From Acidobacteriota bacterium (GTDB lineage: Bacteria; Acidobacteriota; Thermoanaerobaculia; Gp7-AA8): 64,000 bases of DNA. Location of the stretch: contig JAJPHC010000051.1 in assembly GCA_021325515.1 (NCBI GenBank), positions 27,998-91,997 on the forward strand, given 5' to 3'. Under the pieces are notes generated by a model. That model searched no databases. It worked only from the letters and a program-made list of their open reading frames with translations, and was not told the origin of the DNA. Every line of letters begins with the position of its first letter. The first letter of the stretch is position 1. Made by a program: the position numbers and the translations under genes. Positions 15,927-47,411 of this stretch are shown piece by piece.

Positions 15927-15959
15927 GTTTCGGGGGTCACACCTGGAAAATCAACTTAA
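15918..15959. repeat. 42-bp palindromic element family 1, copy A (TTAAGTTGAGTTTCG-GGGGTCACACCT-GGAAAATCAACTTAA)
   Basis: 14-bp terminal inverted repeats TTAAGTTGRTTTTC / GAAAAYCAACTTAA around a 13-nt core. It supplies the TGA stop of the upstream gene and ends 3 nt before the ATG of the macro gene. Confidence 0.9.
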
Positions 15960-15962
15960 CGG

Positions 15963-16460: not shown

Positions 16461-16493
16461 TTTTCCAGGTGTGACCCCCGAAAACCAACTTAA
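16452..16493. repeat. 42-bp palindromic element family 1, copy B (opposite core orientation to copy A)
   Basis: TTAAGTTGATTTTCC-AGGTGTGACCCCC-GAAAACCAACTTAA. It contains the TGA stop of the macro gene at its left end and the TAA stop (rc of 16490-16492) of the minus-strand DUF3011 gene at its right end. Confidence 0.9.
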
Positions 16494-17158: not shown

Positions 17159-17233
17159 TTGCAACCTCCGCCACACTGCGATGCTCAGAACTTGCCACAT
17201 CGCAGCGGGGGTCGAAGCTTTATCATCGCCACG

Positions 17234-25140: not shown

Positions 25141-25205
25141 TTGCGTAGTTGGATGCCGAATGCTGGCTGCCGGTTTCCGGCAGCCAGCAACAGGCGCATG
25201 ACTGA

Positions 25206-25583
25206 TTACGAAGCCTTCGGAGGAACGGCGCAGCCGCCCTTGCCCTTGCACTCGTTCTTGCCATCCGGGCCCTGGCCCTTGCAGGCGTTCTTACCCTTGC
25301 AGTCGTGCTTGACGTCGGACGAGGCGCAGCCGCCCTTGCCCTTGCAGGAGTTCTTGCCGGCGCAGCCCTTGTCGCCGCTCTTGCAGTTGCCTTTGCCCTT
25401 ACAACCGTTCATGCCTTTACAGGCATGCTTGTCGGCCGCCTTGTCAGCCTTCTTGCTGTCGGCCACCTGGACCTTGCCATTGTCGCTGAGCGAGAACGTA
25501 TTGGCGCGGGCCTGGGTACCAACGGTCAAACCTGCAACGACACCACCGAGAACGAGAACCTTTGCGAGATCACGTGAATTCAT
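25206..25583 (-). CDS. secreted Cys/Lys/Gly-rich small protein, candidate RiPP precursor (bufferin-like)
   Basis: AGGAGGG 6 nt before the ATG. Sec signal [27 protein letters not shown]. Mature part has 10 Cys in spaced C-x5-7-C pairs ([36 protein letters not shown]) in a K/G-rich background. First gene of the MNIO operon. Confidence 0.65.
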
Positions 25584-28163: not shown

Positions 28164-29138
28164 ATGCACCATCGCAAACTCGGCCAGCTCGAAGTCTCCG
28201 CCATCGGTCTCGGCTGCATGGGGATGTCGGAGTTCTACGGGACTCACAACGATGCGCAGTCGCTCGACACCATTCATCGCGCGCTCGATCTCGGCGTGAA
28301 CTTTCTCGACACGGCAGACATGTACGGGCCGTTCACGAACGAGAAGCTGGTGGGCCGCGCGATCAAAGGGCGCCGCGACTCCGTGATCCTTGCGACGAAG
28401 TTCGGCAACGAGCGGAGGGCGGACGGATCGTGGGTCGGCATCAACGGCCGGCCGGAGTACGTCCGCGCCGCGTGCGATGCCTCGCTGCTGCGGCTCGGCG
28501 TCGATCACATCGATCTCTACTATCAACATCGCGTCGATCCGAAGACGCCGATCGAAGAAACGGCCGGCGCGATGTCCGAGCTCGTTCGCGCGGGCAAGGT
28601 GCGATTCCTCGGTCTCTCCGAGGCGGCACCGAAGACGATCCGCCGCGCGCATGCGATTCATCCCATCACTGCGCTGCAGACTGAATATTCACTCTGGAGC
28701 CGCGAGCCGGAGGATGAGATTCTTCCGACGGTGCGCGAGCTCGGCATCGGGTTCGTCGCCTACAGTCCGATCGGCCGCGGATTTCTCTCCGGCCGCATCA
28801 AGAGCGTCGACGATCTCGAGCCGGATGACTATCGCCGCAACAACCCGCGATTCCAGGGAGAGAACTTCCAGAAGAATCTCGATCTCGTGAAGAAGATCGA
28901 ACAACTCGCGAAGAAGCGCGGCGTCACGCCCGCACAACTCGCGATCGCGTGGGTGCTGTCGCGCGGCGAAGACATCGTCCCGATTCCCGGCAGCCGCCGC
29001 ATCCCGCATCTCGAGGAGAACATCGCGGCGGTGAACATCACATTGACGCGCGAAGAGCTGAGGCAGATCGACGACGCGGCGCCCGCCGGCGCGGCGGTGG
29101 GAGATCGCTACCCCGACATGTCGCGCGTGAATCTCTAA
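28164..29138 (+). CDS. aldo/keto reductase family oxidoreductase
   Basis: 324 aa. [22 protein letters not shown] and KVRFLGLSE are canonical AKR motifs. Confidence 0.85.
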
Positions 29139-31908: not shown

Positions 31909-33831
31909 GTGACACCCCCTGCGACACTCACCCTGGTGACAACCGAACCGCGTCCGCCGACGCTGACGATCCTTCTGCTGCTCTCGGCAGCACTGCTCGT
32001 CGCCTTCTTCAGCGGCTACGAGCTGCTGGATCGCGCCGTATTCGTCAACATGTTGACCGGTGAGGCTCGCGAGCTGCTGCACGGACTCAGCGGCATCACA
32101 GGCTCCGTCCTTCTCACGATCTTCATCGGCTGGTATCTCGTCGGCCATCCGGTCCACGCGCCGCACCGCAGCGACGGGATCACCTTCTTCGACACACACC
32201 ATCGCCGCATCGAGCAGCTCCGCTGGCTGGTGCAGATGCGCTGGATCGCCGCCGGCTTCAGCCTCGCGCTGATCGTCATCGCAGTACCGCTGATGCGCGT
32301 GCTCTCCGCCGATCACCTTCCCGCGCTGCTCTCCTGGCTCGGCGTGATGGTGGGCGGCAATCTCTACTTCGGCACCGCGATCCATCGCGACCGGAACTTC
32401 GATCGCCAGATCATCGTGCAGATGACGCTCGATACGATCGTCGTCACCGGGCTCCTCAACGCGTCGGGCGGCATCGACAACCCGCTGCTCATCGCCTATC
32501 TCTTCGGCGTCTTCACCGCCGCGGTTCTCCTGCCGAAGAGAACGGCGCTGACCATGACGGCGATGACGGCCGCGGCGCTCATCGCTCTCGTCATGGGCGA
32601 GCTCGTCGGCATCCTCCCCCACGCGAACGTGCGGCTGATGCCGTCGTCCGCGCACAACCCACTCTTCGTCGTCGCGCGGCTCGCGTCGATCCTCGCCGTC
32701 ATGTTCCTCACCTCGTACTTCACGACGATGGTGATGGACCGGCTGCGCGAGAGCGAGTCCGAACTGCGCAGCAACGCGCACACGGCGACGTTCGAGCGGC
32801 GCAGACTCGAGGCCGTGATCGAAGCCGCCGGCTTCGGCATTCTCGTCGTCGGCTCCGACCGCCGCATCGCATGGATCAATCACCGCCTCGGCTCCTGGAT
32901 GTCGTGGGACGAATCGATGATCGGCGGCGAGTGCCCGCACGATCATGAGCGCGACCACTTCTGCTTCGCCTGCACGGCAGCGGAGACGCTGGCCAGCGGC
33001 CGCGCGCAGGAGCGCGAGGTCACGACCGGCATCGTCGGCTCGCAGCGTCACTTTCGCTATGCGACGTTCCCGGTGCGCAGCTCGACGATCGATGTCGCGC
33101 AGGCCGTGCACGTGATCGAGGAGATCACGTCGCGTAAGGAGCTCGAAGCGCAGGCTCTCCACACGAGCGGCCTCGCCGTCCTCGGCCAGCTCGCTGCCGG
33201 GGTCGCGCACGAGATCGGCAATCCGCTGTCATCGCTGCATGCGCGCGTGCAGTTGATGCGCAGGCATCCCGATCCCGGCGCAATCGACGAGAGCCTCGAC
33301 GTGCTCGAGAAGCAGATCGACCGGATGGGACGCATCGTACGCGGCGTATCGCACCTCTCGCGCAATCGATTCGACAGCCGTGGACTCGTCGATGTCGATG
33401 CCGTGGTGCGGGAGGCCGTGGCGCTGGTGAAGATCGATCGCCGTGCGGCCCGCGTCGCGATTCATGACGAGCTGCAGACGCTCCCGCCCGTGCGTGGAAT
33501 CCGCGATGAGCTGCTGCAGGTCGTCCTGAATCTGCTCTTCAACGCGGTGGAAGCGATGCCCGGCGGCGGGACCATTCACGCCACGACGTTCGCGAACAAC
33601 GGGAGCATCTGCATCGGCGTCAAGGACAGCGGACCGGGCATCGATGCGGGCGTGCGCGAGCGGCTGTTCGAGCCGTTCTTCACCACCAAGCACAACGGCA
33701 CCGGCCTCGGTCTCTCCATCTGCCGGAGCCTCGTGCAGGCGAATGGCGGTTCGATCGAAGTCGAGAGCGAGCCGGGACGCGGCGCGCAGTTCACGATCGT
33801 GCTGCCCGCGATGAAGGAGGCCGTCGCATGA
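31909..33831 (+). CDS. membrane sensor histidine kinase (multi-TM N-terminus, HisKA, HATPase)
   Basis: H-box AHEIGNPLSSL; N-box LLFNAVEAM; G boxes DSGPGID and GTGLGLSI; about 8 N-terminal TM helices. Start codon uncertain (track start is GTG). Confidence 0.75.
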   Translation: MTPPATLTLVTTEPRPPTLTILLLLSAALLVAFFSGYELLDRAVFVNMLTGEARELLHGLSGITGSVLLTIFIGWYLVGHPVHAPHRSDGITFFDTHHRRIEQLRWLVQMRWIAAGFSLALIVIAVPLMRVLSADHLPALLSWLGVMVGGNLYFGTAIHRDRNFDRQIIVQMTLDTIVVTGLLNASGGIDNPLLIAYLFGVFTAAVLLPKRTALTMTAMTAAALIALVMGELVGILPHANVRLMPSSAHNPLFVVARLASILAVMFLTSYFTTMVMDRLRESESELRSNAHTATFERRRLEAVIEAAGFGILVVGSDRRIAWINHRLGSWMSWDESMIGGECPHDHERDHFCFACTAAETLASGRAQEREVTTGIVGSQRHFRYATFPVRSSTIDVAQAVHVIEEITSRKELEAQALHTSGLAVLGQLAAGVAHEIGNPLSSLHARVQLMRRHPDPGAIDESLDVLEKQIDRMGRIVRGVSHLSRNRFDSRGLVDVDAVVREAVALVKIDRRAARVAIHDELQTLPPVRGIRDELLQVVLNLLFNAVEAMPGGGTIHATTFANNGSICIGVKDSGPGIDAGVRERLFEPFFTTKHNGTGLGLSICRSLVQANGGSIEVESEPGRGAQFTIVLPAMKEAVA

Positions 33832-35171
33832 CCGGACGGATTCTGCTCGTCGACGACGAAGACGTTTTCCGCGAAGACATCGCGTCATTGCTGCGGCACG
33901 AAGGCTACGTGTGCGAGGCCGCGGCTTCCGGCGCCGAAGCGCTGCGCATTGCACAGAGCGAGGCACCCGACATCATCCTGTCCGACATGGTGATGCCCGG
34001 GATCTCCGGCGCGGAGCTCGTGCGCACACTCGCAGCGGCATGTCCGGAGACGCCGATCGTGGTGATCACCGCGCATGCGACAGTGGAGACGACCGTCGAG
34101 GCCTTTCGCGCCGGTGCGACCGACTATCTCCTCAAGCCGCTAGTCATCGACGATCTCATTCGCAAGGTCGAGCGCTGCCTCGAGCATCGCCGGCTGCAGG
34201 CCGAGCTGCGCTTTCTGCGCAAGCAGGTCTCGCTCGCCGGAGGAGGCACGACGATCGTCGGCACGAGCCGGCCGATCCAGGCCGTGCGCGACCTGATCGC
34301 GCGCGTCGGCCCGTCGAACAGCAGCGTGTTGATCACCGGAGAGAGCGGCACCGGGAAGGAGCTCGTCGCGCGGGCGCTGCATGCTGCCGGCAGCAACGAG
34401 CGCGCGCCGTTCATCGCGGTGAACTGCGCCGCATTGCCGCGAGATCTCATCGAGAGCGAGCTGTTCGGGCACATGCGCGGCGCATTCACCGGAGCGATGC
34501 GCGACAAGCGCGGACTGTTCGAGCTTGCCAACGGCGGCACGCTCTTTCTCGATGAGCTCTGCGAGCTGCCGGTCGAGCTGCAGCCCAAGCTGCTGCGCGC
34601 GATCGAACAGCAGGAGATCCTGCCCGTCGGCGGGACGCGCGTCATCCGGACGAACGTGCGCATCATCGCGGCGACGAATCGCGTCCTGCGCGATGAGATC
34701 GCAACACGGCGCTTCCGCGAGGATCTCTATTTCCGGATTGCGGTCGTGGAGATCGCACTGCCGCCGCTGCGCGACCGACGCGAAGACATCCCGATGCTCG
34801 CCGACTTCCTCATCGCGCGCTTGAATGACCGCCTGAAGCGCCGCGTGAACGGCGTCGCCCACTCCGCGCTCCGCGTGCTGATGAGTGCACCGTGGCGCGG
34901 CAACGTGCGCGAACTGGAGAACGTGCTCGAGCGCGCGATGCTGCTGACGAACAACGAGATCATCGGCATCGAGGATCTCCCCGCCGAGCTGGCCGGCACA
35001 CTCGCGACGAGCGACCCCTCCGACGATCTGCGCAACGCCGTCCGAGCCTACGAACGGGAACACATCCGCCACGTGCTCGCAACGACGAACGGCAATCGCG
35101 AGGAAGCATCCCGAAGGCTCGGCATCGACGCCTCAACCCTCTACCGAAGAATGCGCGACCTCGCCCTTTAA
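33828..35171 (+). CDS. sigma-54-dependent response regulator (NtrC family: REC, AAA+ sigma54-activator, Fis-type HTH)
   Basis: LLVDDE receiver; GESGTGKE Walker A; GAFTGA sigma54-contact motif; ELFGH; C-terminal HTH ..NGNREEASRRLGI..TLYRRM. The stop TAA overlaps the first T of repeat copy C. Confidence 0.9.
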   Translation: MTGRILLVDDEDVFREDIASLLRHEGYVCEAAASGAEALRIAQSEAPDIILSDMVMPGISGAELVRTLAAACPETPIVVITAHATVETTVEAFRAGATDYLLKPLVIDDLIRKVERCLEHRRLQAELRFLRKQVSLAGGGTTIVGTSRPIQAVRDLIARVGPSNSSVLITGESGTGKELVARALHAAGSNERAPFIAVNCAALPRDLIESELFGHMRGAFTGAMRDKRGLFELANGGTLFLDELCELPVELQPKLLRAIEQQEILPVGGTRVIRTNVRIIAATNRVLRDEIATRRFREDLYFRIAVVEIALPPLRDRREDIPMLADFLIARLNDRLKRRVNGVAHSALRVLMSAPWRGNVRELENVLERAMLLTNNEIIGIEDLPAELAGTLATSDPSDDLRNAVRAYEREHIRHVLATTNGNREEASRRLGIDASTLYRRMRDLAL

Positions 35172-35209
35172 GTTGGTTTTCGGGGGTCACACCTGGAAAA
35201 TCAACTTAA
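35168..35209. repeat. 42-bp palindromic element family 1, copy C
   Basis: TTAAGTTGGTTTTCG-GGGGTCACACCT-GGAAAATCAACTTAA; same orientation as copy A. Confidence 0.9.
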
Positions 35210-35241
35210 CGGCGGACAGACAGGCAGGCAGAAGGCACCCG

Positions 35242-35283
35242 TTAAGTTGATTTTCCAGGTGTGACCCCCGAAAACCAACTTAA
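35242..35283. repeat. 42-bp palindromic element family 1, copy D
   Basis: TTAAGTTGATTTTCC-AGGTGTGACCCCC-GAAAACCAACTTAA; identical to copy B. Copies C and D are separated by only a 32-bp spacer with no cargo. Confidence 0.9.
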
Positions 35284-35308
35284 CTTTGCACGATTGGGGG
35301 GGCGGGGG

Positions 35309-35328
35309 GTCTTGCAGAATTGCAAGAC
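35309..35328. promoter_or_regulatory. palindrome GTCTTGCA-gaat-TGCAAGAC (candidate enhancer/UAS for the adjacent NtrC-type activator)
   Basis: Perfect 8-bp arms with 4-nt spacer, about 45 bp upstream of a sigma-54-like -24/-12 element and about 70 bp upstream of the first ORF of the cytochrome operon. Confidence 0.35.
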
Positions 35329-35366
35329 CTTTGACCGTAAGTCGTTGATTCTTCTAGGGAGCGTTG

Positions 35367-35383
35367 GCGGCCCCGGCATTGCG
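35367..35383 (+). promoter_or_regulatory. weak sigma-54-type -24/-12 promoter candidate (cGGccccggcatTGCg)
   Basis: GG at 35369-70 and GC at 35381-82 have the canonical 12-nt GG..GC spacing and the -12 reads TTGC. The -24 half is a poor match to TGGCAC. Confidence 0.25.
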
Positions 35384-35397
35384 ATGGTCCGCTCGCA

Positions 35398-35679
35398 ATG
35401 GATGACGACCTCATGGCTCGCCAACTCGTGCGGGCGGTTCAGGAAGACCTTCGGCTCTGGCTGAACGTCCCTCGCCTCGAGCCTGAGCTCATCGCCAATC
35501 TCTATCTTCGGATCCGCGACATCCTCCGCCGCGATGGCGCACTCGACGAGCTCGCGCTCGCCGTCTACCTCACCGCCACCGCGTGGCAGCCCTCCGTTCC
35601 CGAATCCGCATCCGTCATTCCGACGCTTCGTCGAGATCTCGAAACAGTCATCAACGCAAAAGGAGAAAACAACCCATGA
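35398..35679 (+). CDS. hypothetical small protein (93 aa), first ORF of the cytochrome operon
   Basis: Strong GC3 codon bias. The stop overlaps the ATG of the cytochrome c gene (ATGA). No SD upstream; it could be leaderless if transcription starts at the predicted sigma-54 site. Confidence 0.4.
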   Translation: MDDDLMARQLVRAVQEDLRLWLNVPRLEPELIANLYLRIRDILRRDGALDELALAVYLTATAWQPSVPESASVIPTLRRDLETVINAKGENNP

Positions 35680-35978
35680 AGAAACTCATCGCAATCCTCG
35701 CGCTCGCCGCACTCCCCGTTCTCGCCGCTGAAGACGGCCCGGCTCTGTTCAAGGCGAAATGCGCCGGCTGCCACGGCGCGACCGGCGCCGGCGACACCTC
35801 GGTAGGCAAGAGCCTCAAGGTCGTACCACTCGGCAGCGCCGAAGTGCAGAAGATGAGCGACGCAGACATCACGAAGGTCATCCAGACCGGCAAGGGCAAG
35901 ATGCCCGCCGTCGGCAAGGCCTTCACGCCTGATCAGCTCAAGGCCCTCGTCGCCGTCATCCGCTCGTTCAAGAAGTGA
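35676..35978 (+). CDS. class I c-type monoheme cytochrome (c6/c553-like)
   Basis: AAAGGAG 7 nt before the ATG; signal peptide MKKLIAILALAALPVLA; single CAGCHG haem-binding site; Met ligand region ..GKGKMPA.. Confidence 0.8.
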   Translation: MKKLIAILALAALPVLAAEDGPALFKAKCAGCHGATGAGDTSVGKSLKVVPLGSAEVQKMSDADITKVIQTGKGKMPAVGKAFTPDQLKALVAVIRSFKK

Positions 35979-35989
35979 GGTCAGGTCCG

Positions 35990-36454
35990 ATGGAAGCCTT
36001 CGATCGCTCGATGAATCGCCGCACACTGCTCAACTGGTTTCTCGGCACGTCGTTCGGCGCGCTGATCGCGTCGGTGATCTACCCCGTGCTGCGGTACATG
36101 ACTCCACCGAAGATCGCCGAGGCGAGCACGAATCAGGTCGAAGCCGGCGAAGTGAATGATCCCGCGCTGCTCGACAAGGGCTACAAGATCATCCGCTTCG
36201 GCGCGGAGCCGGTGATTCTCGTCAAGGCCGCGGAAAACGATTTCCGCGCTTTCTCCGCGACGTGCACGCATCTCGACTGCATCGTCGGCTTCCAGAAGGA
36301 CCAGACGCGCATCTACTGCAACTGCCACGGCGGCTGCTACGACCTCACAGGCCGCAATGTCTCCGGTCCGCCGCCGCGGCCTCTCACTCCCTACAAAGTC
36401 AATGTCGTCTCGAAGGGCTCGGGTCCGGGCCTGATCGTCGTATCGAAGGCGTAA
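35990..36454 (+). CDS. Rieske [2Fe-2S] iron-sulfur protein (bc/b6f-type)
   Basis: GAGG 8 nt before the ATG; twin-arginine-like [13 protein letters not shown]; cluster boxes CTHLDC...CNCHGGCY. The track start at 35975 is a GTG overlapping the upstream stop. Confidence 0.85.
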
Positions 36455-36456
36455 TC

Positions 36457-39231
36457 ATGAGCGCAATCTTTGAGTGGCTCGATGACCGGCTCGGCGTCTC
36501 CGTCCTGCGCGAGGTCGCATCACACAAGACCGTACCCTCGCATCGCTACACCATCCTCTACTACCTCGGCGGCATGACGCTCTTCTTCTTCCTCGTCCAG
36601 GTCTGCACCGGCGTTCTGCTGATGCTCTATTACAGACCGTCGGCCGAAGAAGCCTTCGAGTCGGTGGAGTTCATCATGACCACAGTGCCGTTCGGATGGC
36701 TCATCCGCAGCGTGCACTCCTGGTCTGCCAATCTCATGGTGTTCTTCGCCTTCCTCCATCTCGTGAGCGTCTTCTTCATGAAGGCGTACCGGCCGCCGCG
36801 CGAAGTCACCTGGATCAGCGGCGTCATCGTGCTCTTCCTCGTCATGGGCTTCGGCTTCTCCGGCTATCTGCTGCCGTGGAATCAGCTCGCGTTCTTCGCG
36901 ACGAAAGTCGGCACGGACATCGCCGGCGTCGTCCCGCTCGTCGGCCCATGGATGGTGCGCTTCCTCCGCGGTGGTGATCGGGTGAGCGGCGCGACTCTTT
37001 CGCGCTTCTACGGCTGGCACGTCGCGATCCTTCCCGCGATCACGACCGTCATCCTCGGATTGCATCTCGCGATGGTGCAGCTCAAAGGGATGAGCGTGCC
37101 GAAGTCGATCGAGGACGATGCGAATTCGCGCAAGCCGATGAAGTTCTTCCCCCACTTCGCACTGCGCGATCTCACCGGATGGATCATCGCCCTCGGCTTC
37201 GTCGCCGCACTCGCCGCCCTCTTCCCCTGGGAGCTCGGCGACAAGGCTGATCTCTTCGCGCCCGCCTACGAGAACATCCGCCCCGAGTGGTACTTCGTCT
37301 TCATGTTCCAGACGCTGAAGCTCGTGCCCGGCGGCTCCATCGCCGGCATCGAGTACGAGGCGATTCCGATCATGCTGTTCAGCCTCGCCGGCGCTCTGCT
37401 GATGGCTGTCCCCTTCCTCGACCGCAGACTCAAGCGCGATGGAAAGAGCCCGCTCTTCACCACGATCGGCGTGCTCGCCATCCTCTTCATCGTCGGCATG
37501 ACGTGCTGGGGCTACGGCAACATCGTGCCGCTGCTGGTCATGGCGCTCGCCGCATCGCTGCTCGTCCTGCTCGGATGGATCACGAGGCCTCCGCGCGCGA
37601 TGATGATGATCGCGCTGCTGTTCCTCGCCGCACACGCCTGGGGCGCGACGCCGAAGACGTCGTGCACCACCTGCCACAACAGCGAACTATTCGATGCCGC
37701 CGGCAAAGCGAAGGTGACTTCGTTCCTCACGAAGGACGTGCATGCGCAGATCGGCCTCTCCTGTCACGATTGTCACGGCGGCAATCCCGATCCTGCACTG
37801 AGCACCGATCCGGCTGCCGCCATGGATCCCAATTACAAGAAGAACCCGTTCCGCGGAATGCCGGCGCGCAAGGACATTCCCGACTTCTGCGGCCGCTGCC
37901 ACTCCAGCGCGGCCTTCATGAAGCAGTACAACCCGGCCGCGCGCGTCGATCAGGTCAGTGAGTACTGGACGAGCCGCCACGGCCAGCTTCTCAAGCAGGG
38001 CGATACGAATGTCGCGGTCTGCATCGACTGCCATTCCGTGCACGACATCCGCCGCAGGATCTCACCCGACTCGCCCGTCTACAAGACGAAGGTTGCGGAG
38101 ACCTGCAGCCGCTGCCACTCCGACGCGAACAGGATGGCGAAGTACGGCATCCCCACCGATCAGTACGCGCGCTGGCGCGTGAGTGTGCACGCCAATGCGG
38201 TGCTCAACAAGGGCGACATCGCAGCGCCTAGCTGCAACGACTGTCACGGCAATCATGGAGCGACACCTCCCGGCGTCGAGTCGATCAGCTTCGTCTGCGG
38301 ACGCTGTCACGCGCGCGAAGCGGAACTGTTCCGCAAGAGCCCGAAGTACGACGCCTGGCAGAAGCACAACGAGATGATGAACGGGATGGCGTGCTCCACG
38401 TGTCATGCCGACGGCAAGCGCGCCAGCGTCACCGTGACGCACTTCAGCGAATGCCTCACCTGCCACGAGAATCACGGCGTCGTCCGTCCGACGATCGCCC
38501 TGCTCGGCAATCTGCCGGAAACACCCTGCGCGTTCTGTCATGAAGGCGTCGGCCCGCTCGCCGCACGCATCGCGGAGATGCCGGAAAAGGCCGAGCACTT
38601 CAAACAAGTGCGCGACAGCTTCCTCAAGGTTGCCGATGCCCAGCATCTGAAAGGCAATGACCGTTTCGACTGGCTGGTTGACCAGGCGCTGCACCTCCCC
38701 TTCCATCGCGTCGGCGACGCGAAGCAGAACGACAAACTGCGTCCCGAGTTCCTACGGCTCTTCGACAAGTTCCGCATCGGCAAGACGCACTACGTCTACA
38801 AGGATGTGAAAGGGAACGACGTCTCGGTACCGGTCCGCAGTTGTGGCGACTGTCATGAAGAAAAGGATTCCGCCGGCCTGGCGAATGCGCGCGCGTATCT
38901 CGATGCCACGCGCAGCGTGACCAGCATGGTCGGACGCGCCGATCGCATCCTGCTCTCCGCGCATCGCGGCGGTGTCGAAGTGCGCAAGGTACGCGCCGAG
39001 CTCGATGGAGCCATCGACTCCCAGATCGAGCTCGAGACGCTGGTGCACACGTTCAACGCGCCTGAGGTGCAGGCCAAACAGAAAGAAGGACTGCAGCACG
39101 CCGAGGCGGCGCTGGTCGCCGGACAATCGGCGCTCGACGAGTTGCTGTATCGCCGCAAAGGATTGTTGATCGCGCTCGGAATCATCCTTCTGGTTCTCGT
39201 CGCGCTGATCACGAAGATCAGGACGTTGTAG
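36457..39231 (+). CDS. cytochrome b (b6 plus subunit-IV-like, 8+ TM) fused to a C-terminal multiheme (11 x CxxCH) cytochrome c domain
   Basis: The N-terminal about 420 aa has the cytochrome b His ligands and the PEWY motif ([14 protein letters not shown]). The C-terminal about 500 aa carries CTTCH, CHDCH, CGRCH, CIDCH, CSRCH, CNDCH, CGRCH, CSTCH, CLTCH, CAFCH and CGDCH, plus a final TM anchor. The track start at 36262 is artefact; the ATG at 36457 follows the Rieske stop. Confidence 0.85.
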
Positions 39232-40848
39232 ATGAGCGAAGCCGAGCTCGAGCTGCGCGTTCAGCGCCTCGAGACCGCGCTGGCGGAGCTGACGCGCCGC
39301 GTAGACGGTGTAGGACAGGCGCCCTCGCCTGTCCACGCGCCCTCGCCTGTCCACGCGCCCTCGCCTGTCCAGGCGCCCTCGCTCCACTTCGACACGGATG
39401 CCGCGGGACAGGCGGAGGCGCCTGTCCTACAGGACTCCCCTGACTGGCTCACCCTGGCCGGCTTCTCCGTCCTCATCTTCGGCGGTGCGTATCTTCTCCG
39501 CGCCTTCACGGAGTCGGGCGTGCTGCCGCCGGTCGGCGGTGTCATCGCCGGTGCGGTGTACGCGCTCATCTGGATCTGGATCGCCGATCGCAAGCATGCG
39601 GTCTACCTCGCCGCGACCGCGGCCGCAATCGCGTTCCCGCTCGTGTGGGAGACGACGGCGCGCTTCCACTACGTGACGCCGGCGGCCGGCGGCTTCCTCG
39701 CGGCGATCATCGGCGTGATCCTCATCTTCGTCGCCTGGCACAACAGCAAGGAAGCGATCGCGTGGATTGCCAGCATCGGCTCGATCGCCGTCACGATCGC
39801 GATCGTCAAGCCGGACGCGATGCTGCCGCTCATGATCGCCGGCAGCGTCGTCGGCGCGGCAACGCTGCACGTCGCCATCCTGATGCGATGGAAGTTCGTC
39901 GCGCTCCCCGCCGCGGTCATGACCAACGCGCTTGCGTCGATGACCATCGGCATCCCGATTCTCCGCGGCGGCTTCGAGCGCCCCGGCGAAACGATCGCGG
40001 CGCTCATCGGCTTCGCCGCAGTCTGGCTCGCGACGATCTGCTATCGCCGCATTCATTACAACGAGCACCTCTCCTTCTTCGACATCATCGAGAGTGCGCT
40101 ACTGCTCTTCATCGGCGTCGGCGGCGCGGCCTTCGTCGCCGGACTGACGCATCGCTATGGCGTCATCGTCGCAACGATCTATGTGATCGCCGCGGTCGCC
40201 GCGTATCTCGAGGCGTCGAGAAAAGACGGCATGCGCACGTGGCTCACCTCGGTCGCGCTCTATCTGATCTGGCTGGCGATGCTGATCGCGCTCGAGCTGC
40301 GCGCGGCCGCCGTCATCGCTGCGATTCTCGGCGTCGCTTCGGCGGAATTCGGACGCCGCCTGCAATGGCCGGCACTCGCCGCGCAGAGCGTCCTCTGGAT
40401 CGCCGGCGCCTTCCTGATCGGCGGCTTCTCCGGCCCCGTCGCCATTCTGATCTCCGCCTGCATCCTGATCGCGTGCCTGCGTGTGCACCTGCCGCTCGCT
40501 CACACTCTGCTGCTCGCGCTCTTCGCCGTTTCGCTCTTCCTGCTTGCCGGACATGATCGCGGCGCACTCGTCCGCACGCTTCTGCTCGCCGCCTTCGCAG
40601 CAATCCTCGGATTCGGCTCGAAATACACGCATGCGGCGATTCCGGTCGCTCGCCTCCTGCTCGTCGCAGGTGGATTGAAATTACTCGCAGAGGATGTCCG
40701 CACCGAGCGCGCGGCCATCCTCGTTATCTCCTTTGCTGCCTATGGGTTCGCCATGCTCGCCGTCGCGAGATGTGCGCGCCGTCACACCACTTCGCCACTT
40801 GAGTCACAAAGAACCCCCCTCACTGACACATTAAGTAGCAATCGCTAA
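39232..40848 (+). CDS. DUF2339-like polytopic membrane protein with N-terminal coiled-coil
   Basis: MSEAELELRVQRLETALAELTRR coiled coil, then about 14 TM helices. Contains an in-frame copy of palindromic element family 2 in the linker. Confidence 0.55.
   Translation: MSEAELELRVQRLETALAELTRRVDGVGQAPSPVHAPSPVHAPSPVQAPSLHFDTDAAGQAEAPVLQDSPDWLTLAGFSVLIFGGAYLLRAFTESGVLPPVGGVIAGAVYALIWIWIADRKHAVYLAATAAAIAFPLVWETTARFHYVTPAAGGFLAAIIGVILIFVAWHNSKEAIAWIASIGSIAVTIAIVKPDAMLPLMIAGSVVGAATLHVAILMRWKFVALPAAVMTNALASMTIGIPILRGGFERPGETIAALIGFAAVWLATICYRRIHYNEHLSFFDIIESALLLFIGVGGAAFVAGLTHRYGVIVATIYVIAAVAAYLEASRKDGMRTWLTSVALYLIWLAMLIALELRAAAVIAAILGVASAEFGRRLQWPALAAQSVLWIAGAFLIGGFSGPVAILISACILIACLRVHLPLAHTLLLALFAVSLFLLAGHDRGALVRTLLLAAFAAILGFGSKYTHAAIPVARLLLVAGGLKLLAEDVRTERAAILVISFAAYGFAMLAVARCARRHTTSPLESQRTPLTDTLSSNR
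39309..39430. repeat. palindromic repeat element family 2, expanded copy (internal 18-bp unit ACGCGCCCTCGCCTGTCC x3) inside a CDS
   Basis: It translates in frame as VGQAPSPVHAPSPVHAPSPVQAPSLHFDTDAAGQAEAPVLQ. The ends are GTAGGACAGGCG... and ...GCCTGTCCTAC. Confidence 0.8.
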
Positions 40849-40898
40849 CTCCAGACTGTGACCGCTGAAATGGGATTTGAACTCGAAGGAGACAAGCA

Positions 40899-43049
40899 AT
40901 GACACGACTTCACCGCGGCCTGATCCTCATCGCGCTTATGGCCGTCATCTCGCTGCCGATGTTCGCGGCGACGCGCGGACGCGCCGCCGGTTCGCCTGCG
41001 AATCCGGCCACGCCAACGGCAGCGGCATTCCCGCCGACTGCGAAAGAGGCATACCTCACCGATGACACGCTCGCGTATATCCGTCCCGGCCTCAAGGTGA
41101 AGCTCAACTCCGTCGCGGTCGGCACGGACGGCAAGGTCAACGTCGATCTCTCGATCACCGACGACTTCGATCAGCCGATCGATCGCCTCGGGAAAACGAC
41201 GCCGGGCGCAGTCTCCATCAGCTACATCCTCGCCTGGTACAGCCCCACGACCCGCCAGTACACCGCGTACACCACGCGTGTACAAACGACTCCCGCCACG
41301 AGTCCGCATCCCGGCGTCAGCGCAACTCAGGCAGGAACCGATTCCGGCGGCACCACCACCGATCTCGAAACCGGCCATGTGAAGTACCTCTTCAAGACGG
41401 TGCTTCCCACCGGCTTCGACGGCACCAGGACGCACACACTCGGCATCTATGCCTCGCGCAACATGACCGATACGATCGGCAAGATCTATTACGCGAACGT
41501 CGAGTACGACTTCCGTCCCGATGGCAACAAGGTCACGGACGTATGGGACAAGGTCAATCTCGCCACGAGCTGCAACAACTGCCACGATCCCCTTTCCGCA
41601 CATGGCGGTGCGCGCCGCGATCCGAAACTGTGCGCGCTCTGCCACTCTCCGCAGACCATCGATCCCGACACCGGCAACACGGTCGATTTCAAGGTGATGA
41701 TCCACAAGATCCATCAGGGCGCGACTCTGCCGAGCGTGAAGGCCGGAACGCCGTATCAGATCATCGGCTTCGGCCAGAACGTCCTGGACTTCTCCAAGGT
41801 CGCGCTTCCGCCGGGACAGGACACTCGCAATTGCGCCTTCTGCCATGTCGGCAGCGATCCGACGAAGAAGCCCGCACAGAACGACGTCTGGCTGACCAAG
41901 CCGTCGCGCGATGCATGCGGTTCCTGCCACGACGACATCGACTGGGCCACAGGCAAGAATCACGTCGGCGGCCTTCAGAAGGATGACAGCGCGTGCGCCA
42001 GTTGCCACGTTCCGGACAGCGGGAAGGAATTCGACGCGTCCATCAAGGGCGGCCACGTTCTTCCGGTTGCCTCCAAGCAGCTCAAGGGCATCACCGCCAC
42101 GATCACCAAGGTCGTGAATGCGGCACCCGGCAAGAAACCGACGGTGACCATCGCCGTCAAGAACGGCGACGGCACGCCGGTCGACGGCAGCAAGCTGACG
42201 ACCTTCGCGCCGATCATGGCCGGCCCAACCACGAGCTACACCAAGTACTTCCGCGAGAGCGGCATCGCATCCGCCACGAACACGAACGTCGCGACCTACG
42301 ACGCGGCCACCGGCCTCACCTCGTTCACGTTCGCCAACGCGATCCCCGCCGATCAGACCGGCACATGGGCCTTCACTGCAGACATCTATCGCAACGTCAC
42401 ACTGAAGCAGAACAATGACAAGGCCGATCTGACGCAGCGCGAAGCGGCGTTCAACAACATCGTCTACATCCCGATCACCGGCACGACGGCGACGCCGCGC
42501 CGCACCTCGGTCATCCTGTCCCAGTGCAACAGCTGCCACAATGCGCTCGCACTGCACGGCGGCCAGCGCCAGAACACGCAGGAATGCGCCATCTGCCACA
42601 ACCCCACGAACAATGACGTTGCACAGCGCCCGGCGAGCGAAGGGCAGCCGGAGTCGATCTCCTTCCAGCGTCTCATCCATCGCATCCACAAGGGCGGAGA
42701 GTTGACGCAGGACTTCACCGTCTACGGCAATAACAAGTCCCGCCACAACTACAACGACGTGGAGTATCCGGGAGACATCAACCATTGCGCGAAGTGCCAC
42801 ACGTCGACCTCGTACCAGCTGCCGCTGGCGACGGGCATCGACTCCGTGACGACACTCCGCGATTACTATTCGCCGCAAGGCCCCGCGACCGCTGCGTGCC
42901 TTGGCTGCCACGACAATCGTGACGCCGCGGCGCACGCGTTCCTCAATACGGCAACGTTCCCCGGCCAGCCCACTACCCCGGCCGAAGCGTGCGCAACGTG
43001 CCACGGTGCTGGTAAGGACTGGGCGGTCGACAAGGTGCACGCCCAGTAA
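40899..43049 (+). CDS. MtrC/OmcA-like outer-surface decaheme c-type cytochrome (10 x CxxCH, beta-rich inserts)
   Basis: GGAG before the ATG; signal peptide; CNNCH, CALCH, CAFCH, CGSCH, CASCH, CNSCH, CAICH, CAKCH, CLGCH, CATCH in 716 aa. Thr/Gly-rich beta-type segments lie between the haem clusters. The antisense ORF 40845-43229 is artefact. Confidence 0.7.
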   Translation: MTRLHRGLILIALMAVISLPMFAATRGRAAGSPANPATPTAAAFPPTAKEAYLTDDTLAYIRPGLKVKLNSVAVGTDGKVNVDLSITDDFDQPIDRLGKTTPGAVSISYILAWYSPTTRQYTAYTTRVQTTPATSPHPGVSATQAGTDSGGTTTDLETGHVKYLFKTVLPTGFDGTRTHTLGIYASRNMTDTIGKIYYANVEYDFRPDGNKVTDVWDKVNLATSCNNCHDPLSAHGGARRDPKLCALCHSPQTIDPDTGNTVDFKVMIHKIHQGATLPSVKAGTPYQIIGFGQNVLDFSKVALPPGQDTRNCAFCHVGSDPTKKPAQNDVWLTKPSRDACGSCHDDIDWATGKNHVGGLQKDDSACASCHVPDSGKEFDASIKGGHVLPVASKQLKGITATITKVVNAAPGKKPTVTIAVKNGDGTPVDGSKLTTFAPIMAGPTTSYTKYFRESGIASATNTNVATYDAATGLTSFTFANAIPADQTGTWAFTADIYRNVTLKQNNDKADLTQREAAFNNIVYIPITGTTATPRRTSVILSQCNSCHNALALHGGQRQNTQECAICHNPTNNDVAQRPASEGQPESISFQRLIHRIHKGGELTQDFTVYGNNKSRHNYNDVEYPGDINHCAKCHTSTSYQLPLATGIDSVTTLRDYYSPQGPATAACLGCHDNRDAAAHAFLNTATFPGQPTTPAEACATCHGAGKDWAVDKVHAQ

Positions 43050-43060
43050 GGGAGGCGGCG

Positions 43061-44026
43061 ATGCGAATCGAATTTGCTTGGGTCCGCGGGCTCGAGGGCC
43101 CGCGGGCTCCCGGTGTAGGACAGGCGCCCTCGCCTGTCCAATCCGCCAGTGGCAGGCGGGGGCGCCTGTCGTACACATTGCTCTTCCTGATCGTTCTGAG
43201 TGTTCCGTTGCTTGCCCAGGAGGCGGCAACGGTTCCCTCCTGCGGCGATTGTCACGACGAACAGGCCAAGGCCTTCATCACCAATCCCCACGGTCACGGC
43301 AAAGCTGTCAATGGTGTGATTCCCAATGCCGTCTGCGAAAAGTGCCATGGCGACGGCAAGGGCCACATCGAAGGCGGCGGCGACAAGAGTCTCATCTACA
43401 AACCGGCCGGAATGGCAGGCTCGAACAAGACCTGCCTTACCTGCCACGACCTCAATAACGATCGCGTGTCGCGTCATGCCGGCACTCATGCGAACTCTCC
43501 GGCGGTGAACTGCCTCACCTGTCATTCGGTTCACTCCGCGAAAGCATCACCGCTGCTCGTCAAGAAGCAGCTCGAGCTCTGTGCGAACTGCCACGCGACT
43601 CAGGTCGCCTCCTTCCGCGACAAGCCCTACGCGCATCGCCTCGGCCGCGGCGGCATGGAGTGCAGTTCCTGTCACGAGCCGCACGGACGTCCGCAGCGCG
43701 AGATGCTGCGCAAGACCACGGCGGGCGAGCTCCCCTGCGTTGGCTGCCACGTGCAGCAGCGCGGGCCATTCGTCTTCCAGCACGGCTCCGCGGCGATCGG
43801 CGACTGCATGACGTGCCATGAGCCGCACGGCTCTGCGAATCCGAAGCGCCTCATTCGCGCGACGGTCACGCAGCTCTGCATCGAGTGCCATTCGCCCATC
43901 GAAGGCAACACACTCGGCTCACAGCCGCCGGCGTTCCACAACCTCTCTCTGTCGCGCTACCAGAGCTGCACGACCTGCCATACCGCGGTCCACGGCTCCA
44001 ATCGCGACCCGCAGTTGTTCAAATGA
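43061..44026 (+). CDS. MtrA/DmsE-like periplasmic decaheme c-type cytochrome (10 x CxxCH in 321 aa)
   Basis: GGAGG 6 nt before the ATG. CGDCH, CEKCH, CLTCH, CLTCH, CANCH, CSSCH, CVGCH, CMTCH, CIECH, CTTCH. The size and haem density match MtrA. The signal-peptide n-region is interrupted by a family-2 palindromic element. Confidence 0.75.
   Translation: MRIEFAWVRGLEGPRAPGVGQAPSPVQSASGRRGRLSYTLLFLIVLSVPLLAQEAATVPSCGDCHDEQAKAFITNPHGHGKAVNGVIPNAVCEKCHGDGKGHIEGGGDKSLIYKPAGMAGSNKTCLTCHDLNNDRVSRHAGTHANSPAVNCLTCHSVHSAKASPLLVKKQLELCANCHATQVASFRDKPYAHRLGRGGMECSSCHEPHGRPQREMLRKTTAGELPCVGCHVQQRGPFVFQHGSAAIGDCMTCHEPHGSANPKRLIRATVTQLCIECHSPIEGNTLGSQPPAFHNLSLSRYQSCTTCHTAVHGSNRDPQLFK
43115..43174. repeat. 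palindromic repeat element family 2, short copy, in-frame inside the MtrA-like signal peptide
   Basis: GTAGGACAGGCGCCCTCGCCTGTCCAATCCGCCAGTGGCAGGCGGGGGCGCCTGTCGTAC, translated VGQAPSPVQSASGRRGRLSYT immediately before the hydrophobic core LLFLIVLSVPLLA. Confidence 0.8.
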
Positions 44027-44038
44027 AGGAGTGAGACG

Positions 44039-45901
44039 ATGACCATCAGAAGAATCTTCGCGCTCCTCCTCTTCACCGCTGCAACGGCCGGTCAGGCACA
44101 AGTGGCGCCCTGGGACTTCGAAGCCGGCTATCGCTGGCTCAATCTCAAAGGCAGCCCCGGGATGTATCGCACGCAGGTCAACGAGCGCGAGGGATTTCTC
44201 ATCCGTAGTTTCAACCTCGCGACCACCGGACCCAACATGGACCGGCTCGTCGTTCACGTCAGCGATTTCGGCACGAGTCCCGCCGGCTCGCTCCGCCTCG
44301 AGGCCTGCAAGCAGGATCTCTATCGCTTCACTCTCGGCTACCGCTCCGCGGATCAGTACTCCATCTTCTTCGGCCAGCATTACTACAACCGTGCACGGCG
44401 CACCCTCGACGCGGATCTCGAGCTCTTCCCCGAGTCGCGCATCGCGCCCTACGTCGGCTACTCCTTCAACCGCTTTGCAGGTCCCGGCGAAACCACGTAT
44501 CACTTCGGCCAGGATGAATTTCTGCTGCAGCAGAAGCAGAAGGATATCGATCAGGAAGTGCGCGTCGGTGCGAGCTTCAAGTACGACTGGGTGTACGGCA
44601 GCTTCACACAAGGGTGGCGGCGTGCACACAGCACGATCGACTCCTCGCTCTTCCCCGGTGCCGGCAACGGCAACAACAACGATCCCATCCTCGGCCAGCC
44701 GGTCAACGCGACCTCGATCACGCGCCACGACACGGAAAAGACGAAGACTCCCTTCACCAATCTCTACGTCACGCTGCAACCGCTCTCGCGCGGCCGCGTG
44801 ATCGCGAATTACGTTCATCTCTCCGCAGACTCGGATGGCAATGAGAGCGAGGCGGCCTACGGCAGCTTCGCCTCGTTCGCCATCAGCCGCTTCTTCACAG
44901 GCGCGACGGAAACCGCGACATCGCACGCGAAAAACACCACGTGGCGCAGCGGCGTTCGCGGTGAGTACACCATCGCCGAGGGTGTGGATGCCTTCGCCGG
45001 ATATCAGAAGGACCATCGCGATCTCAACGGCAGCGCGCTGATCGATACGCTGTATCTGCAGAGCATCACGTTCGGCGGCGTCGACCAGCGCGACTTCCGC
45101 GACATCCTCGCCTCCGAGAACTCGATTGAGCGCGAGGAGACGACGACCAGTGCCGGCGTTTCCGTCCGCAATCTCGGCAACCTCGCAGTGCGCGCCGAAT
45201 TCCGCCAGGCGAAAGTCGAAGCGGATGTCGCACCCGATCTCTCCGAGATCGTCGTCCCCGGAAATCAGGAAGGCTCGTTCGAGCGGCGCATCAACACACT
45301 CGACACCAACGCGCAGTACGCAACGCACGGCTGGCTCCTCGGCGCTGCCTGGCGCAGCGACAGTGCGAATCAGCCGATCTTCCGCACTGATTACAAGGAC
45401 CGCGACCGCTATCGCCTGCGCGCGCAATGGTCGCAGTTCAAGTGGGCGAAGATCACCTCCGTCTACGAGCGCACGACGATGTCGAATGACACCTCGTTCG
45501 AAAGCCGCGTCCGCAACTACACGACCGACGCCGCGATCATGCCCACGGAAGGCATTACGCTGCACGCCTCGGTGTCATCCTTCAAGAGCGACAGTACGAT
45601 CTCGTATCGCCGCCCGCAGACCTTCGTCGTCACGACCTCCGTCCACAGCGAGAACGGTCACACGCGCGAAGGCGGCATCGGCTTCGCGCTGCCGCACTCC
45701 ATCTACTTCGATGCGAACATCGCACGGCTGCACAATGACGGCACGTACCCGTTCAAGCTCAACCGCTACAACGGCCGGATGACGTTCCCCTTGAAGTCGC
45801 ATTACGGCCTCGCCGTCGAATACAACAAGGACCGCTACGTGGAGTCGAGCTCACTCGATTACGACGCCACGCGCTGGGGCCTCTTCCTTCGGATTCAGTA
45901 G
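44039..45901 (+). CDS. large outer-membrane beta-barrel protein, MtrB/PioB-like porin partner of the decaheme pair
   Basis: GGAGTGAG before the ATG; signal peptide MTIRRIFALLLFTAATAGQAQ; 620 aa of alternating Y/F/W-rich amphipathic strands; positioned directly after the MtrA-like gene, as in mtrCAB. Confidence 0.55.
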   Translation: MTIRRIFALLLFTAATAGQAQVAPWDFEAGYRWLNLKGSPGMYRTQVNEREGFLIRSFNLATTGPNMDRLVVHVSDFGTSPAGSLRLEACKQDLYRFTLGYRSADQYSIFFGQHYYNRARRTLDADLELFPESRIAPYVGYSFNRFAGPGETTYHFGQDEFLLQQKQKDIDQEVRVGASFKYDWVYGSFTQGWRRAHSTIDSSLFPGAGNGNNNDPILGQPVNATSITRHDTEKTKTPFTNLYVTLQPLSRGRVIANYVHLSADSDGNESEAAYGSFASFAISRFFTGATETATSHAKNTTWRSGVRGEYTIAEGVDAFAGYQKDHRDLNGSALIDTLYLQSITFGGVDQRDFRDILASENSIEREETTTSAGVSVRNLGNLAVRAEFRQAKVEADVAPDLSEIVVPGNQEGSFERRINTLDTNAQYATHGWLLGAAWRSDSANQPIFRTDYKDRDRYRLRAQWSQFKWAKITSVYERTTMSNDTSFESRVRNYTTDAAIMPTEGITLHASVSSFKSDSTISYRRPQTFVVTTSVHSENGHTREGGIGFALPHSIYFDANIARLHNDGTYPFKLNRYNGRMTFPLKSHYGLAVEYNKDRYVESSSLDYDATRWGLFLRIQ

Positions 45902-45912
45902 ATCCCTCTCCC

Positions 45913-45940
45913 CTTCTCCCCCGCCCTCGCGGGGGAGAAG
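45913..45940 (+). terminator. GC-rich stem-loop CTTCTCCCCCGC-cctc-GCGGGGGAGAAG after the operon
   Basis: Perfect 12-bp stem, 12 nt after the stop of the beta-barrel gene. Confidence 0.45.
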
Positions 45941-45980
45941 GTGCGGAGGCGGACGTCGATGTTCCCCCTACAATGGATGC

Positions 45981-47411
45981 ATGCCTACTGTGCGGCCGCT
46001 CCTCGCGGCGGTCCTGTTTCTCGTCACCATTGGCGCCGCGGCTCAGCAGCGCGTCGCGATCGTTGACGTCACCGTCATCGATGTGGATGCCGCCGACGCC
46101 GCGCATGCGGTCGCGGCACACCAGTCCGTCGTCATCACCGGCTCTCGCATCTCCGCGCGAGGGCCCGCCGCCAAAATCCGAATTCCCCGAGATGCGACGG
46201 TCATCGACGGCTCGGGCAGGTTTCTGATCCCGGGACTCTGGGACATGCATGTGCACACGCTGCCGGAAGTGCGACGGCCGAAAGCCGTCGAGATCTGGTT
46301 GCCGCTGTTCGTGGCCAACGGCGTTACTTCCGTGCGCGACATGGGCGGATCCGATGACGCGTTGACGAACACGCGATTGCGCATCGCCCGGGAGCGCCTG
46401 CTCTCGCCCCGCTTGATCGCTGCCGGGTCGGCGATCGACGGCTTTCCACCTCAGTTCGGCACCGGAGTCCGCTCGCCCGCGGAGGCACGGCAGGTTGTCG
46501 ATGCACATCAGAAATCGGGAGCCGATTTCATCAAGCCCTACAACCTCCTTACGCGCGAGGAGTACTTCGCGATCATCGACGAGGCGAAGAAAGTGGGCTT
46601 GCCGGTCGCGGGTCATGTCCCCCTGAGTCTCACCGTGCTGGAAGTTTCCGATGCCGGCCAGCGCAGCGTCGAGCACCTGACTGACATTCCCGCTTCGTGC
46701 TCCACGATCGAGGCCGAGCTTCGCCAGGAACGGCTGCGCACGCCGCTGTCGGATTTCCGCGCGTGGCAGCGGGCGCGCTGGACCGAAGAGACGCGCGCCG
46801 CAGCATCACATTCGCCCGCGCGCTGCCGCGCACTGTTTGAACATCTGACGCGCAACGGAACATGGATCGTCCCGACGCTCGTCAATAAGAAGTCGGCACT
46901 CGACGTCGCATCGCGGCTGCGCGATCCGGTCCTGCTTCAATACATGGAGCCGGCCACGCGCGCAGCGTGGGAAAAGAGCGCAGCGATGAGCCCCGCCACG
47001 CCGGACGAAGTTGCGAGCCGCACGGCGAGATACGAGTCGATGCTAAGGCTCACCGGCGAAGCAAATGATGCGCATGCCCTTCTGCTGGCGGGAACCGATA
47101 CCGGCAGTCCGTTTCCTCTCGTCCCCGGATTCAGCCTTCATGAAGAGCTGGCCATCCTTGTCGAATCCGGACTGGCGCCGCTGCAGGCACTCCGCAGCGC
47201 CACGCTCTCGCCGGCGCGCTACCTTCACCGCGAGCGCGACCTGGGAACGGTCGCGCGGCGCAGGATCGCCGATCTCGTCCTCCTCGACAAGAATCCGCTG
47301 GAGGATATTCGCAATACGCAATCGATCGCCGCTGTGATCCTCGGCGGCCGCCCTCTGATGCGCGACGCATTGGACAAGATCCTCGCTGATGCAGCGATGG
47401 CTGCGAAATAA
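45981..47411 (+). CDS. amidohydrolase family metallo-hydrolase (secreted)
   Basis: Signal peptide; GLWDMHVHT metal-binding His-x-His; downstream GTD..S; family-typical length 476 aa. Confidence 0.75.
   Translation: MPTVRPLLAAVLFLVTIGAAAQQRVAIVDVTVIDVDAADAAHAVAAHQSVVITGSRISARGPAAKIRIPRDATVIDGSGRFLIPGLWDMHVHTLPEVRRPKAVEIWLPLFVANGVTSVRDMGGSDDALTNTRLRIARERLLSPRLIAAGSAIDGFPPQFGTGVRSPAEARQVVDAHQKSGADFIKPYNLLTREEYFAIIDEAKKVGLPVAGHVPLSLTVLEVSDAGQRSVEHLTDIPASCSTIEAELRQERLRTPLSDFRAWQRARWTEETRAAASHSPARCRALFEHLTRNGTWIVPTLVNKKSALDVASRLRDPVLLQYMEPATRAAWEKSAAMSPATPDEVASRTARYESMLRLTGEANDAHALLLAGTDTGSPFPLVPGFSLHEELAILVESGLAPLQALRSATLSPARYLHRERDLGTVARRRIADLVLLDKNPLEDIRNTQSIAAVILGGRPLMRDALDKILADAAMAAK

Follow-up and report, generated by a model that had tools for sequence, protein, structure and literature searches.

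A probable MtrCAB-type porin–cytochrome conduit beside a Rieske/cytochrome b complex in uncultured Thermoanaerobaculia

The DNA analysed here (64,000 nucleotides (nt) of contig JAJPHC010000051.1, hereafter the window) comes from an uncultured soil acidobacterium of the class Thermoanaerobaculia and carries, at positions 40899–45901, three adjacent genes that we believe with good confidence to encode a porin–cytochrome conduit of the MtrCAB type, linked to a neighbouring bc-type complex and most probably carrying electrons outward. The first two genes encode decahaem cytochromes of the MtrC/OmcA and MtrA/DmsE families. What is new here is that the third gene, which had remained without annotation, is a divergent MtrB; that the triad is pervasive in the Thermoanaerobaculia, with an MtrC devoid of both the lipoprotein anchor and the Cys pair of its Shewanella counterparts; and that a complex made up of a Rieske protein and a cytochrome b–11-haem fusion protein is a recurrent neighbour of the triad.

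The mtrC-, mtrA- and mtrB-like genes

All three genes lie on the + strand: the mtrC-like gene 1 at 40899–43049 (716 amino acids (aa), 10 CxxCH motifs), the mtrA-like gene 2 at 43061–44026 (321 aa, 10 CxxCH) and the barrel gene 3 at 44039–45901 (620 aa, no CxxCH), separated by gaps of 11 and 12 nt, respectively. The positions, sizes and motif counts of these open reading frames (ORFs) are exactly as given in the initial annotation of this DNA, and so is the C-A-B order, which it had likened to that of Shewanella mtrCAB; since its three genes adjoin one another, the locus qualifies as an MtrCAB cluster in the sense of Baker et al. 2022. Both cytochromes contain 20 Cys, all inside CxxCH motifs. 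Six-frame translation of the whole window yielded just three frames with two or more such motifs (genes 1 and 2 and, further upstream, a cytochrome b fusion with 11), so their clustering is not a chance effect. GC content at third codon positions (0.78–0.83 in the genes) and codon-position GC in general are typical of real genes, and the gene boundaries are identical in public gene calls.

Gene 1 scored 486.9 bits against TIGR03507 (cutoff 209.3), covering positions 2–672 of the 672 in this profile hidden Markov model (HMM), and contains the Pfam domain PF22113 (MtrC/MtrF domain II/IV) twice. Its sequence relatives in the PDB, as found by phmmer, were MtrF, OmcA, UndA and MtrC only. An AlphaFold2 model built with 36 homologues in the alignment (predicted local distance difference test (pLDDT) 71) shows a beta domain at residues 66–205, a haem domain at about 221–385, a second beta domain at 398–525 and a second haem domain, five CxxCH motifs lying at residues 225–366 and five at 543–698. 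The top 15 PDB matches of this model in Foldseek were all OmcA, UndA, MtrC or MtrF (best E-value 2e-27, about 660 aligned columns). Curated HMM and fold thus confirm the MtrC/OmcA-type assignment first made from the pattern of haem motifs, and the beta domains of the MtrC fold, whose absence would have spoken against it, are both present. Relatives of gene 1 already bear the name "OmcA/MtrC family decaheme c-type cytochrome" at NCBI and JGI.

The protein starts with a signal peptide and its first Cys is residue 225. Since no Cys precedes this position, there is no lipobox Cys in gene 1, and the check for a lipoprotein signal that the initial annotation had recommended was negative; most of the 50-plus relatives examined likewise have no N-terminal Cys. 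The lipobox is a trait of the Shewanella members of the family and is not part of its definition by the TIGR03507 HMM. The Cys pair of domain III, which in the Shewanella clade forms a disulfide that gates flavin (PMC9973256), is also absent from gene 1.

Gene 2 passed the DmsE/MtrA model TIGR03508 (211.5 bits; cutoff 192.2). Its residues 59–315 aligned with residues 65–325 of chain A of 6R2Q (E-value 2e-34), which, despite the misleading name given by the depositors, is the MtrA of the solved Mtr complex. Ten of ten CxxCH motifs were in register, so that the comparison of haem spacing, too, bore out the predicted MtrA-like nature of this periplasmic cytochrome. The first ~38 residues of gene 2 include an exact copy of a hairpin resembling repetitive extragenic palindromic (REP) elements, GGACAGGCGCCCTCGCCTGTCC (43118–43139, + strand), which lies in the 5′ coding region and forms part of the n-region of the signal peptide. 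A downstream TTG start, which would skip this REP-like insert, was dropped in favour of the ATG at 43061, because the latter is preceded at a distance of 5 nt by a GGGAGG Shine–Dalgarno sequence, is the start used in the public gene call, and leaves in frame an insert that is kept in the closest relative.

Gene 3 is less easily recognized. Its product has a signal-like N-terminal segment and no transmembrane helix, and is predicted to be all-beta. No family in Pfam or NCBIfam matched it at an E-value of 0.1 or below, PF11854 and the MtrB/PioB models included, and searches of PDB sequences with phmmer, or with a 43-sequence profile, returned noise only (E > 0.1). Its homologues number in the hundreds and are nearly all called "hypothetical protein", the labelled ones belonging to metagenome-assembled genomes (MAGs) of Thermoanaerobaculia or Acidobacteriota. 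The AlphaFold2 model (pLDDT 82) is a barrel of 26 strands with no plug domain, in which a short helix lies between strands 1 and 2 and strands 1–4 are shorter than the others; the number of strands, the helix and the short first strands are all as described in the crystal structure paper on MtrB (PMC7198977). Foldseek ranked MtrB first among PDB structures (6r2q_B; E-value 3e-15, template modelling (TM) score 0.68), followed by 22-strand TonB receptors (E-value ~1e-9, TM score 0.4–0.5). Two structure searches, independent of each other, both placed MtrB at the top, aligning 529 residues with it versus about 400 with the next match. The best match of the barrel is therefore MtrB rather than a member of an unrelated outer-membrane family such as the TonB receptors or alginate porins; a TonB receptor was ruled out by the missing plug and by the presence of 26 strands instead of 22.

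Sequence intermediates support the view that gene 3 is a true homologue of MtrB, beyond the similarity of fold. An exhaustive search with the barrel profile (A1) reached a more distant acidobacterial barrel, P0250, with an E-value of 8e-47 across the whole profile. Nine of ten distant barrel representatives had no MtrB/PioB match in Pfam, and P0250 alone matched PF11854, below threshold, which is why the connection to MtrB was made through the family of P0250 itself. Where labelled, the members of this family come from Bryobacteraceae or from Acidobacteriota MAGs. PF11854 is matched by 12 of the 20 members sampled, and one member, P0274, scores 32.7 bits (cutoff 23) and carries the NCBI name "MtrB/PioB family outer membrane beta-barrel protein". 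Gene 3 aligned with P0274 over 580 residues in BLASTP (E-value 6e-23), and hhalign matched the alignments of the two families over 601 columns (probability 100%, E-value 8e-46). The MtrB/PioB-type identity proposed for gene 3 in the initial annotation thus holds at the level of fold and profile–profile homology, and fails at that of direct recognition by the MtrB/PioB HMMs.

A collection of one genome per species, scanned with the barrel profile, contained 137 confirmed relatives, the best 79 loci of which were analysed. Nearly all of these are labelled Thermoanaerobaculia or Acidobacteriota, and many sample names refer to soil, permafrost or sediment. The MtrA-like gene lies immediately 5′ of the barrel gene in 74 of the 79 loci and is itself preceded by an MtrC-like gene in 71; loci in which the C-A-B arrangement is incomplete are interrupted by contig ends. 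Nearly all copies of the triad have 10 + 10 haem motifs. The mtrCAB-type module is accordingly stable and class-wide in the Thermoanaerobaculia.

The Rieske/cytochrome b–11-haem complex and its surroundings

The bc complex that the initial annotation had placed next to the triad is real, Rieske and cytochrome b domains being encoded upstream on the same strand. The first gene of this group (35583–35978; PF13442, PF00034) encodes a small monohaem cytochrome c of class I, complete with signal peptide, and its true start is likely a Met codon at about 35676. Its stop overlaps by 4 nt the start of the gene for a Rieske [2Fe-2S] subunit with an N-terminal transmembrane anchor (35975–36454; PF00355, PF25471), which in turn ends 2 nt ahead of the ATG of the cytochrome b gene at 36457. 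The latter (36457–39231) encodes a fusion of a cytochrome b (b6 plus a subunit IV-like part, with about eight transmembrane segments; PF00033, PF13631, PF00032) to a periplasmic domain with 11 CxxCH motifs, recognized by multihaem domain models and followed by a C-terminal transmembrane anchor. NCBIfam identifies this protein as a cytochrome b6; its score against the ExtP model of the same database (215 bits) is under the cutoff of 290. The fusion is a candidate for the quinol-side module of the system.

Between the bc genes and mtrC lies a gene (39232–40848, + strand) for a polytopic membrane protein of 538 aa, with at least 12 hydrophobic segments by hydropathy and an N-terminal coiled-coil-like segment. 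It has no match in Pfam, NCBIfam or the PDB. Since it has homologues next to the Rieske/cytochrome b genes of L014, L015 and L026, three of the related loci, this protein may be an unrecognized subunit or an assembly factor.

From 35583 to 45901 the window thus contains seven + strand genes with gaps of at most 50 nt, and this spacing makes a single transcript most likely. Scans of 35100–46300 for sigma-70 promoters and terminators gave nothing above background, so that the limits of the operon are drawn from gene spacing. A search for the sigma-54 promoter consensus gave fewer matches than expected by chance; a candidate near 35363, seen by eye and with three mismatches, was discarded for want of statistical support. 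A PAS histidine kinase and a sigma-54-dependent response regulator, identified by their Pfam domains, are encoded immediately upstream (31909–35171, + strand). Judged by position, this pair may regulate the operon; it is not conserved beside the triad in related loci.

Among the relatives, 37 loci had about 10 kb on both sides of the triad. Rieske/cytochrome b–11-haem genes were found within 10 kb in 10 of these full-flank loci, in varying positions and orientations. A free 11-haem cytochrome, homologous to the 11-haem domain fused to cytochrome b in the window, was present together with a 484-aa, five-haem membrane cytochrome of the NrfH/NapC type in 22, eight of which carry bc genes too. Neither module was nearby in the remaining 13. 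The CymA-like module of the sister loci lies 3′ of mtrB, for example at 12218–15787 in L054 and likewise in 21 other full-flank loci; there is no NapC-type gene in the 64-kb window. This distribution suggests that inner-membrane quinol modules are interchangeable and would feed a common 11-haem periplasmic relay. No literature linking Rieske complexes to MtrC in Acidobacteria was found, within an incomplete coverage of the literature. In one relative, ccmC (cytochrome c maturation, NCBIfam) adjoins mtrC on its upstream side and runs on the other strand (L004, 5939–6601), and an ORF at 5932–6633 in another (L010) was matched to it by similarity of the N-terminal sequence only.

The window also contains several elements of other kinds. 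Seven copies or variants of the REP-like hairpin occur in it, against none expected (sites 9596–9660, 39313–39427 and 43118–43139); three tandem 18-nt units inside the 5′ part of the coding sequence for the 538-aa membrane protein encode APSPVH repeats. Just after the sigma-54 regulator gene lies a perfect inverted repeat of 45 nt with a 26-nt spacer (35168–35283), a 38-nt arm of which bounds, in inverted orientation, a 572-bp segment with a 165-aa ORF (15920–16491). The two look like a small element with terminal inverted repeats and a derivative resembling a miniature inverted-repeat transposable element. On the − strand, 22585–25583 encodes a fusion of DoxX and methionine sulfoxide reductase, a DUF2063 protein, an enzyme of the MbnB/TglH/ChrH group (DUF692) and a 125-aa ORF, a set that we take to resemble the clusters for MbnB-type or bufferin-like ribosomally synthesized and post-translationally modified peptides. 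Two large TPR-repeat Ser/Thr protein kinases (16640–19513 and 29135–31831) and several two-component systems found in other parts of the window have no evident link to the Mtr cluster.

Electron flow and alternative readings

By analogy with the Shewanella complex, the decahaem MtrA-like protein would be lodged inside the 26-strand MtrB-like barrel and provide an insulated wire of haems through the outer membrane, on the outer face of which the MtrC-like decahaem protein would dock and trade electrons with insoluble or extracellular substrates. The Rieske/cytochrome b–11-haem complex would connect the quinone pool to MtrA at the inner membrane, the role played by CymA in Shewanella. The most probable flow would be outward, to Fe(III)/Mn(IV) minerals or humic material as electron acceptors. 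This direction is favoured because the terminal cytochrome is of the MtrC type and because Thermoanaerobaculum aquaticum, the sole cultured representative of this class, is able to reduce Fe(III) and Mn(IV), according to work cited in PMC9671151.

Several observations weigh against this picture. All the relatives analysed are MAGs. Gene 1 has no lipobox Cys, as is the case for most of its relatives, and its model is of moderate confidence (pLDDT 71), the last 60 C-terminal residues being poorly predicted. Gene 3 shares an identity of 12–13% with MtrB in the structural alignment and is not picked up directly by the curated MtrB/PioB models. In most relatives the triad and the bc complex do not adjoin, the latter varying in position and orientation, and the monohaem cytochrome c of class I within the gene block would also suit an ordinary respiratory complex III. 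In addition, Rieske centres usually have higher potentials than typical multihaem chains.

The alternative with the best standing, which we nevertheless consider the less probable reading, concerns the bc genes: the triad would be a genuine MtrCAB, but the neighbouring Rieske/cytochrome b genes would encode an ordinary complex III, and their adjacency would be functionally meaningless. The occurrence of bc genes within 10 kb in only 10 of the 37 full-flank relatives, on either side and on either strand, the 13 loci with no candidate quinol module nearby and the presence of the monohaem cytochrome within the gene block would all be in line with this. However, one gene set placed at random in a multi-megabase genome would lie near the triad far less often than in 10 of 37 loci, and the fused 11-haem domain has a homologue in the free 11-haem protein encoded after mtrB in sister loci. 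Moreover, the genes in the window abut on one strand with gaps of 0–50 nt.

Alternatively, the same conduit may work inward, with Fe(II) or another extracellular donor supplying electrons that the bc complex would pass downhill to an oxidase via the monohaem cytochrome c, or uphill to quinone. MtrA/MtrB homologues act in Fe(II) oxidizers and the Mtr system is reversible (PMC3032769). The Rieske/cytochrome b pair and the class I monohaem cytochrome c of the operon are, furthermore, typical of higher-potential chains. We nonetheless regard inward flow as unlikely, given that an MtrC-type surface decahaem cytochrome is characteristic of mineral reducers and that the cultured representative of the class reduces Fe(III) and Mn(IV). 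To our knowledge, the classic MtoAB and PioAB systems have no MtrC-type surface decahaem protein.

Yet another possibility is that the gene 1 product is a soluble periplasmic or secreted decahaem cytochrome, not exposed at the surface, so that the MtrAB-like pair alone would form the conduit. Shewanella MtrC and OmcA are lipoproteins, whereas neither gene 1 nor most of its 50-plus relatives encode a Cys before the first haem motif. Still, the strict C-A-B adjacency and the full four-domain MtrC fold favour the same partnership, and soluble MtrC deprived of its anchor reportedly still binds MtrAB in vitro; we would give this explanation even less credit than inward flow. Finally, it is highly improbable that gene 3 is an unrelated large barrel (a TonB-dependent receptor, an LptD-like protein or a generic porin) adjoining two cytochromes by chance, for although it has no direct match to PF11854 or to the NCBIfam MtrB/PioB models, a few relatives show weak Porin_4 or OMP_b-brl matches, and TonB receptors rank lower down in its fold searches, its model is 26-stranded and plug-less with MtrB on top in two structure searches, its profile strongly matches those of acidobacterial proteins annotated as MtrB/PioB from end to end, and its synteny with MtrA-like genes is invariant.

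Relation to known systems and implications

The MtrCAB-type conduit proposed here shares with that of Shewanella (6R2Q; S. oneidensis/S. baltica) the C-A-B order, a decahaem MtrC with a beta/haem/beta/haem organization, a decahaem MtrA in which all ten motifs align, and a 26-strand barrel, the first four strands of which are short, with a small helix separating strand 1 from strand 2. It differs from it in the low identity of the barrel, unseen by MtrB/PioB HMMs, in the lack of a lipobox and of a domain III Cys pair in MtrC, and in the lack of mtrDEF or omcA paralogues nearby. Furthermore, the position of CymA is not filled by any CymA/NapC-type gene in the window, and a Rieske/cytochrome b–11-haem complex is found upstream instead.

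Our initial annotation held that such modules are rarely reported outside Proteobacteria. This was overstated: mtrCAB has been published for five Acidobacteriia, belonging to Bryobacterales or unclassified and designated Group 5 by Baker et al. 2022 (PMC8805035), and a hot-spring study (PMC9671151) lists two MtrA genes and one MtrC gene for a MAG of Thermoanaerobaculum aquaticum, naming no MtrB for that genome. In Group 5, a tetrahaem gene is reported to follow mtrB, and no inner-membrane quinol oxidoreductase to be located nearby (PMC8805035). The P0250/P0274 barrels, which we tentatively equate with Group 5 on the grounds of taxonomy, are the closest recognizable relatives of gene 3 within the same phylum. 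The locus in the window departs from that group in belonging to the class Thermoanaerobaculia, in a barrel identity of ~23%, and in being flanked by a bc-type complex upstream and an amidohydrolase downstream. The reading of the triad as mtrCAB is thus supported, the kind of system being already known and the phylum not new for it.

Two other systems deserve comparison. The Fe(II)-oxidation conduits MtoAB and PioAB likewise combine an MtrA-family decahaem cytochrome with an MtrB/PioB-family barrel, and a bc-type link has been proposed for them in reverse electron flow; unlike these classic systems, the present one includes an MtrC-type surface cytochrome. The Pcc/Ext and Cbc systems of Geobacter follow a similar logic, in that the conduit through the outer membrane and a quinol oxidoreductase of the b-type/multihaem kind are genetically linked. 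The outer-membrane proteins encoded here are, however, Mtr-family members non-homologous to the Pcc families, and a Pcc-type reading was ruled out by the fact that both cytochromes pass Mtr-family models.

Mtr conduits are the best-understood bacterial route for the respiration of minerals and electrodes, and surveys of their distribution, whether based on the HMM triads of Baker et al. 2022 or on tools of the FeGenie type, need all three genes to be recognized. The barrel of the Thermoanaerobaculia escapes the Pfam and NCBIfam models while at least 71 of the 79 loci contain the triad; therefore, the iron-cycling potential of this class, which is abundant in soil, is probably under-called. These findings leave the known mechanism unchanged; they extend its range and flag a gap in annotation by the MtrB/PioB models. 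The linkage of the triad to a Rieske/cytochrome b–11-haem complex, or to a NapC-type cytochrome, offers a testable picture of how the quinone pool may be connected to Mtr outside the Proteobacteria. It is tempting to go one step further, although we put this forward tentatively and as somewhat unlikely, and to regard the MtrCAB of the Thermoanaerobaculia as a distinct and under-counted lineage, with an HMM-invisible barrel and a non-lipoprotein MtrC, that in a subset of members, the present organism among them, is hard-wired to the Rieske/cytochrome b–11-haem complex. If this were true, quinol oxidation in extracellular electron transfer would proceed through a proton-motive enzyme of the Q-cycle type and not through the CymA/NapC route, which does not conserve energy.

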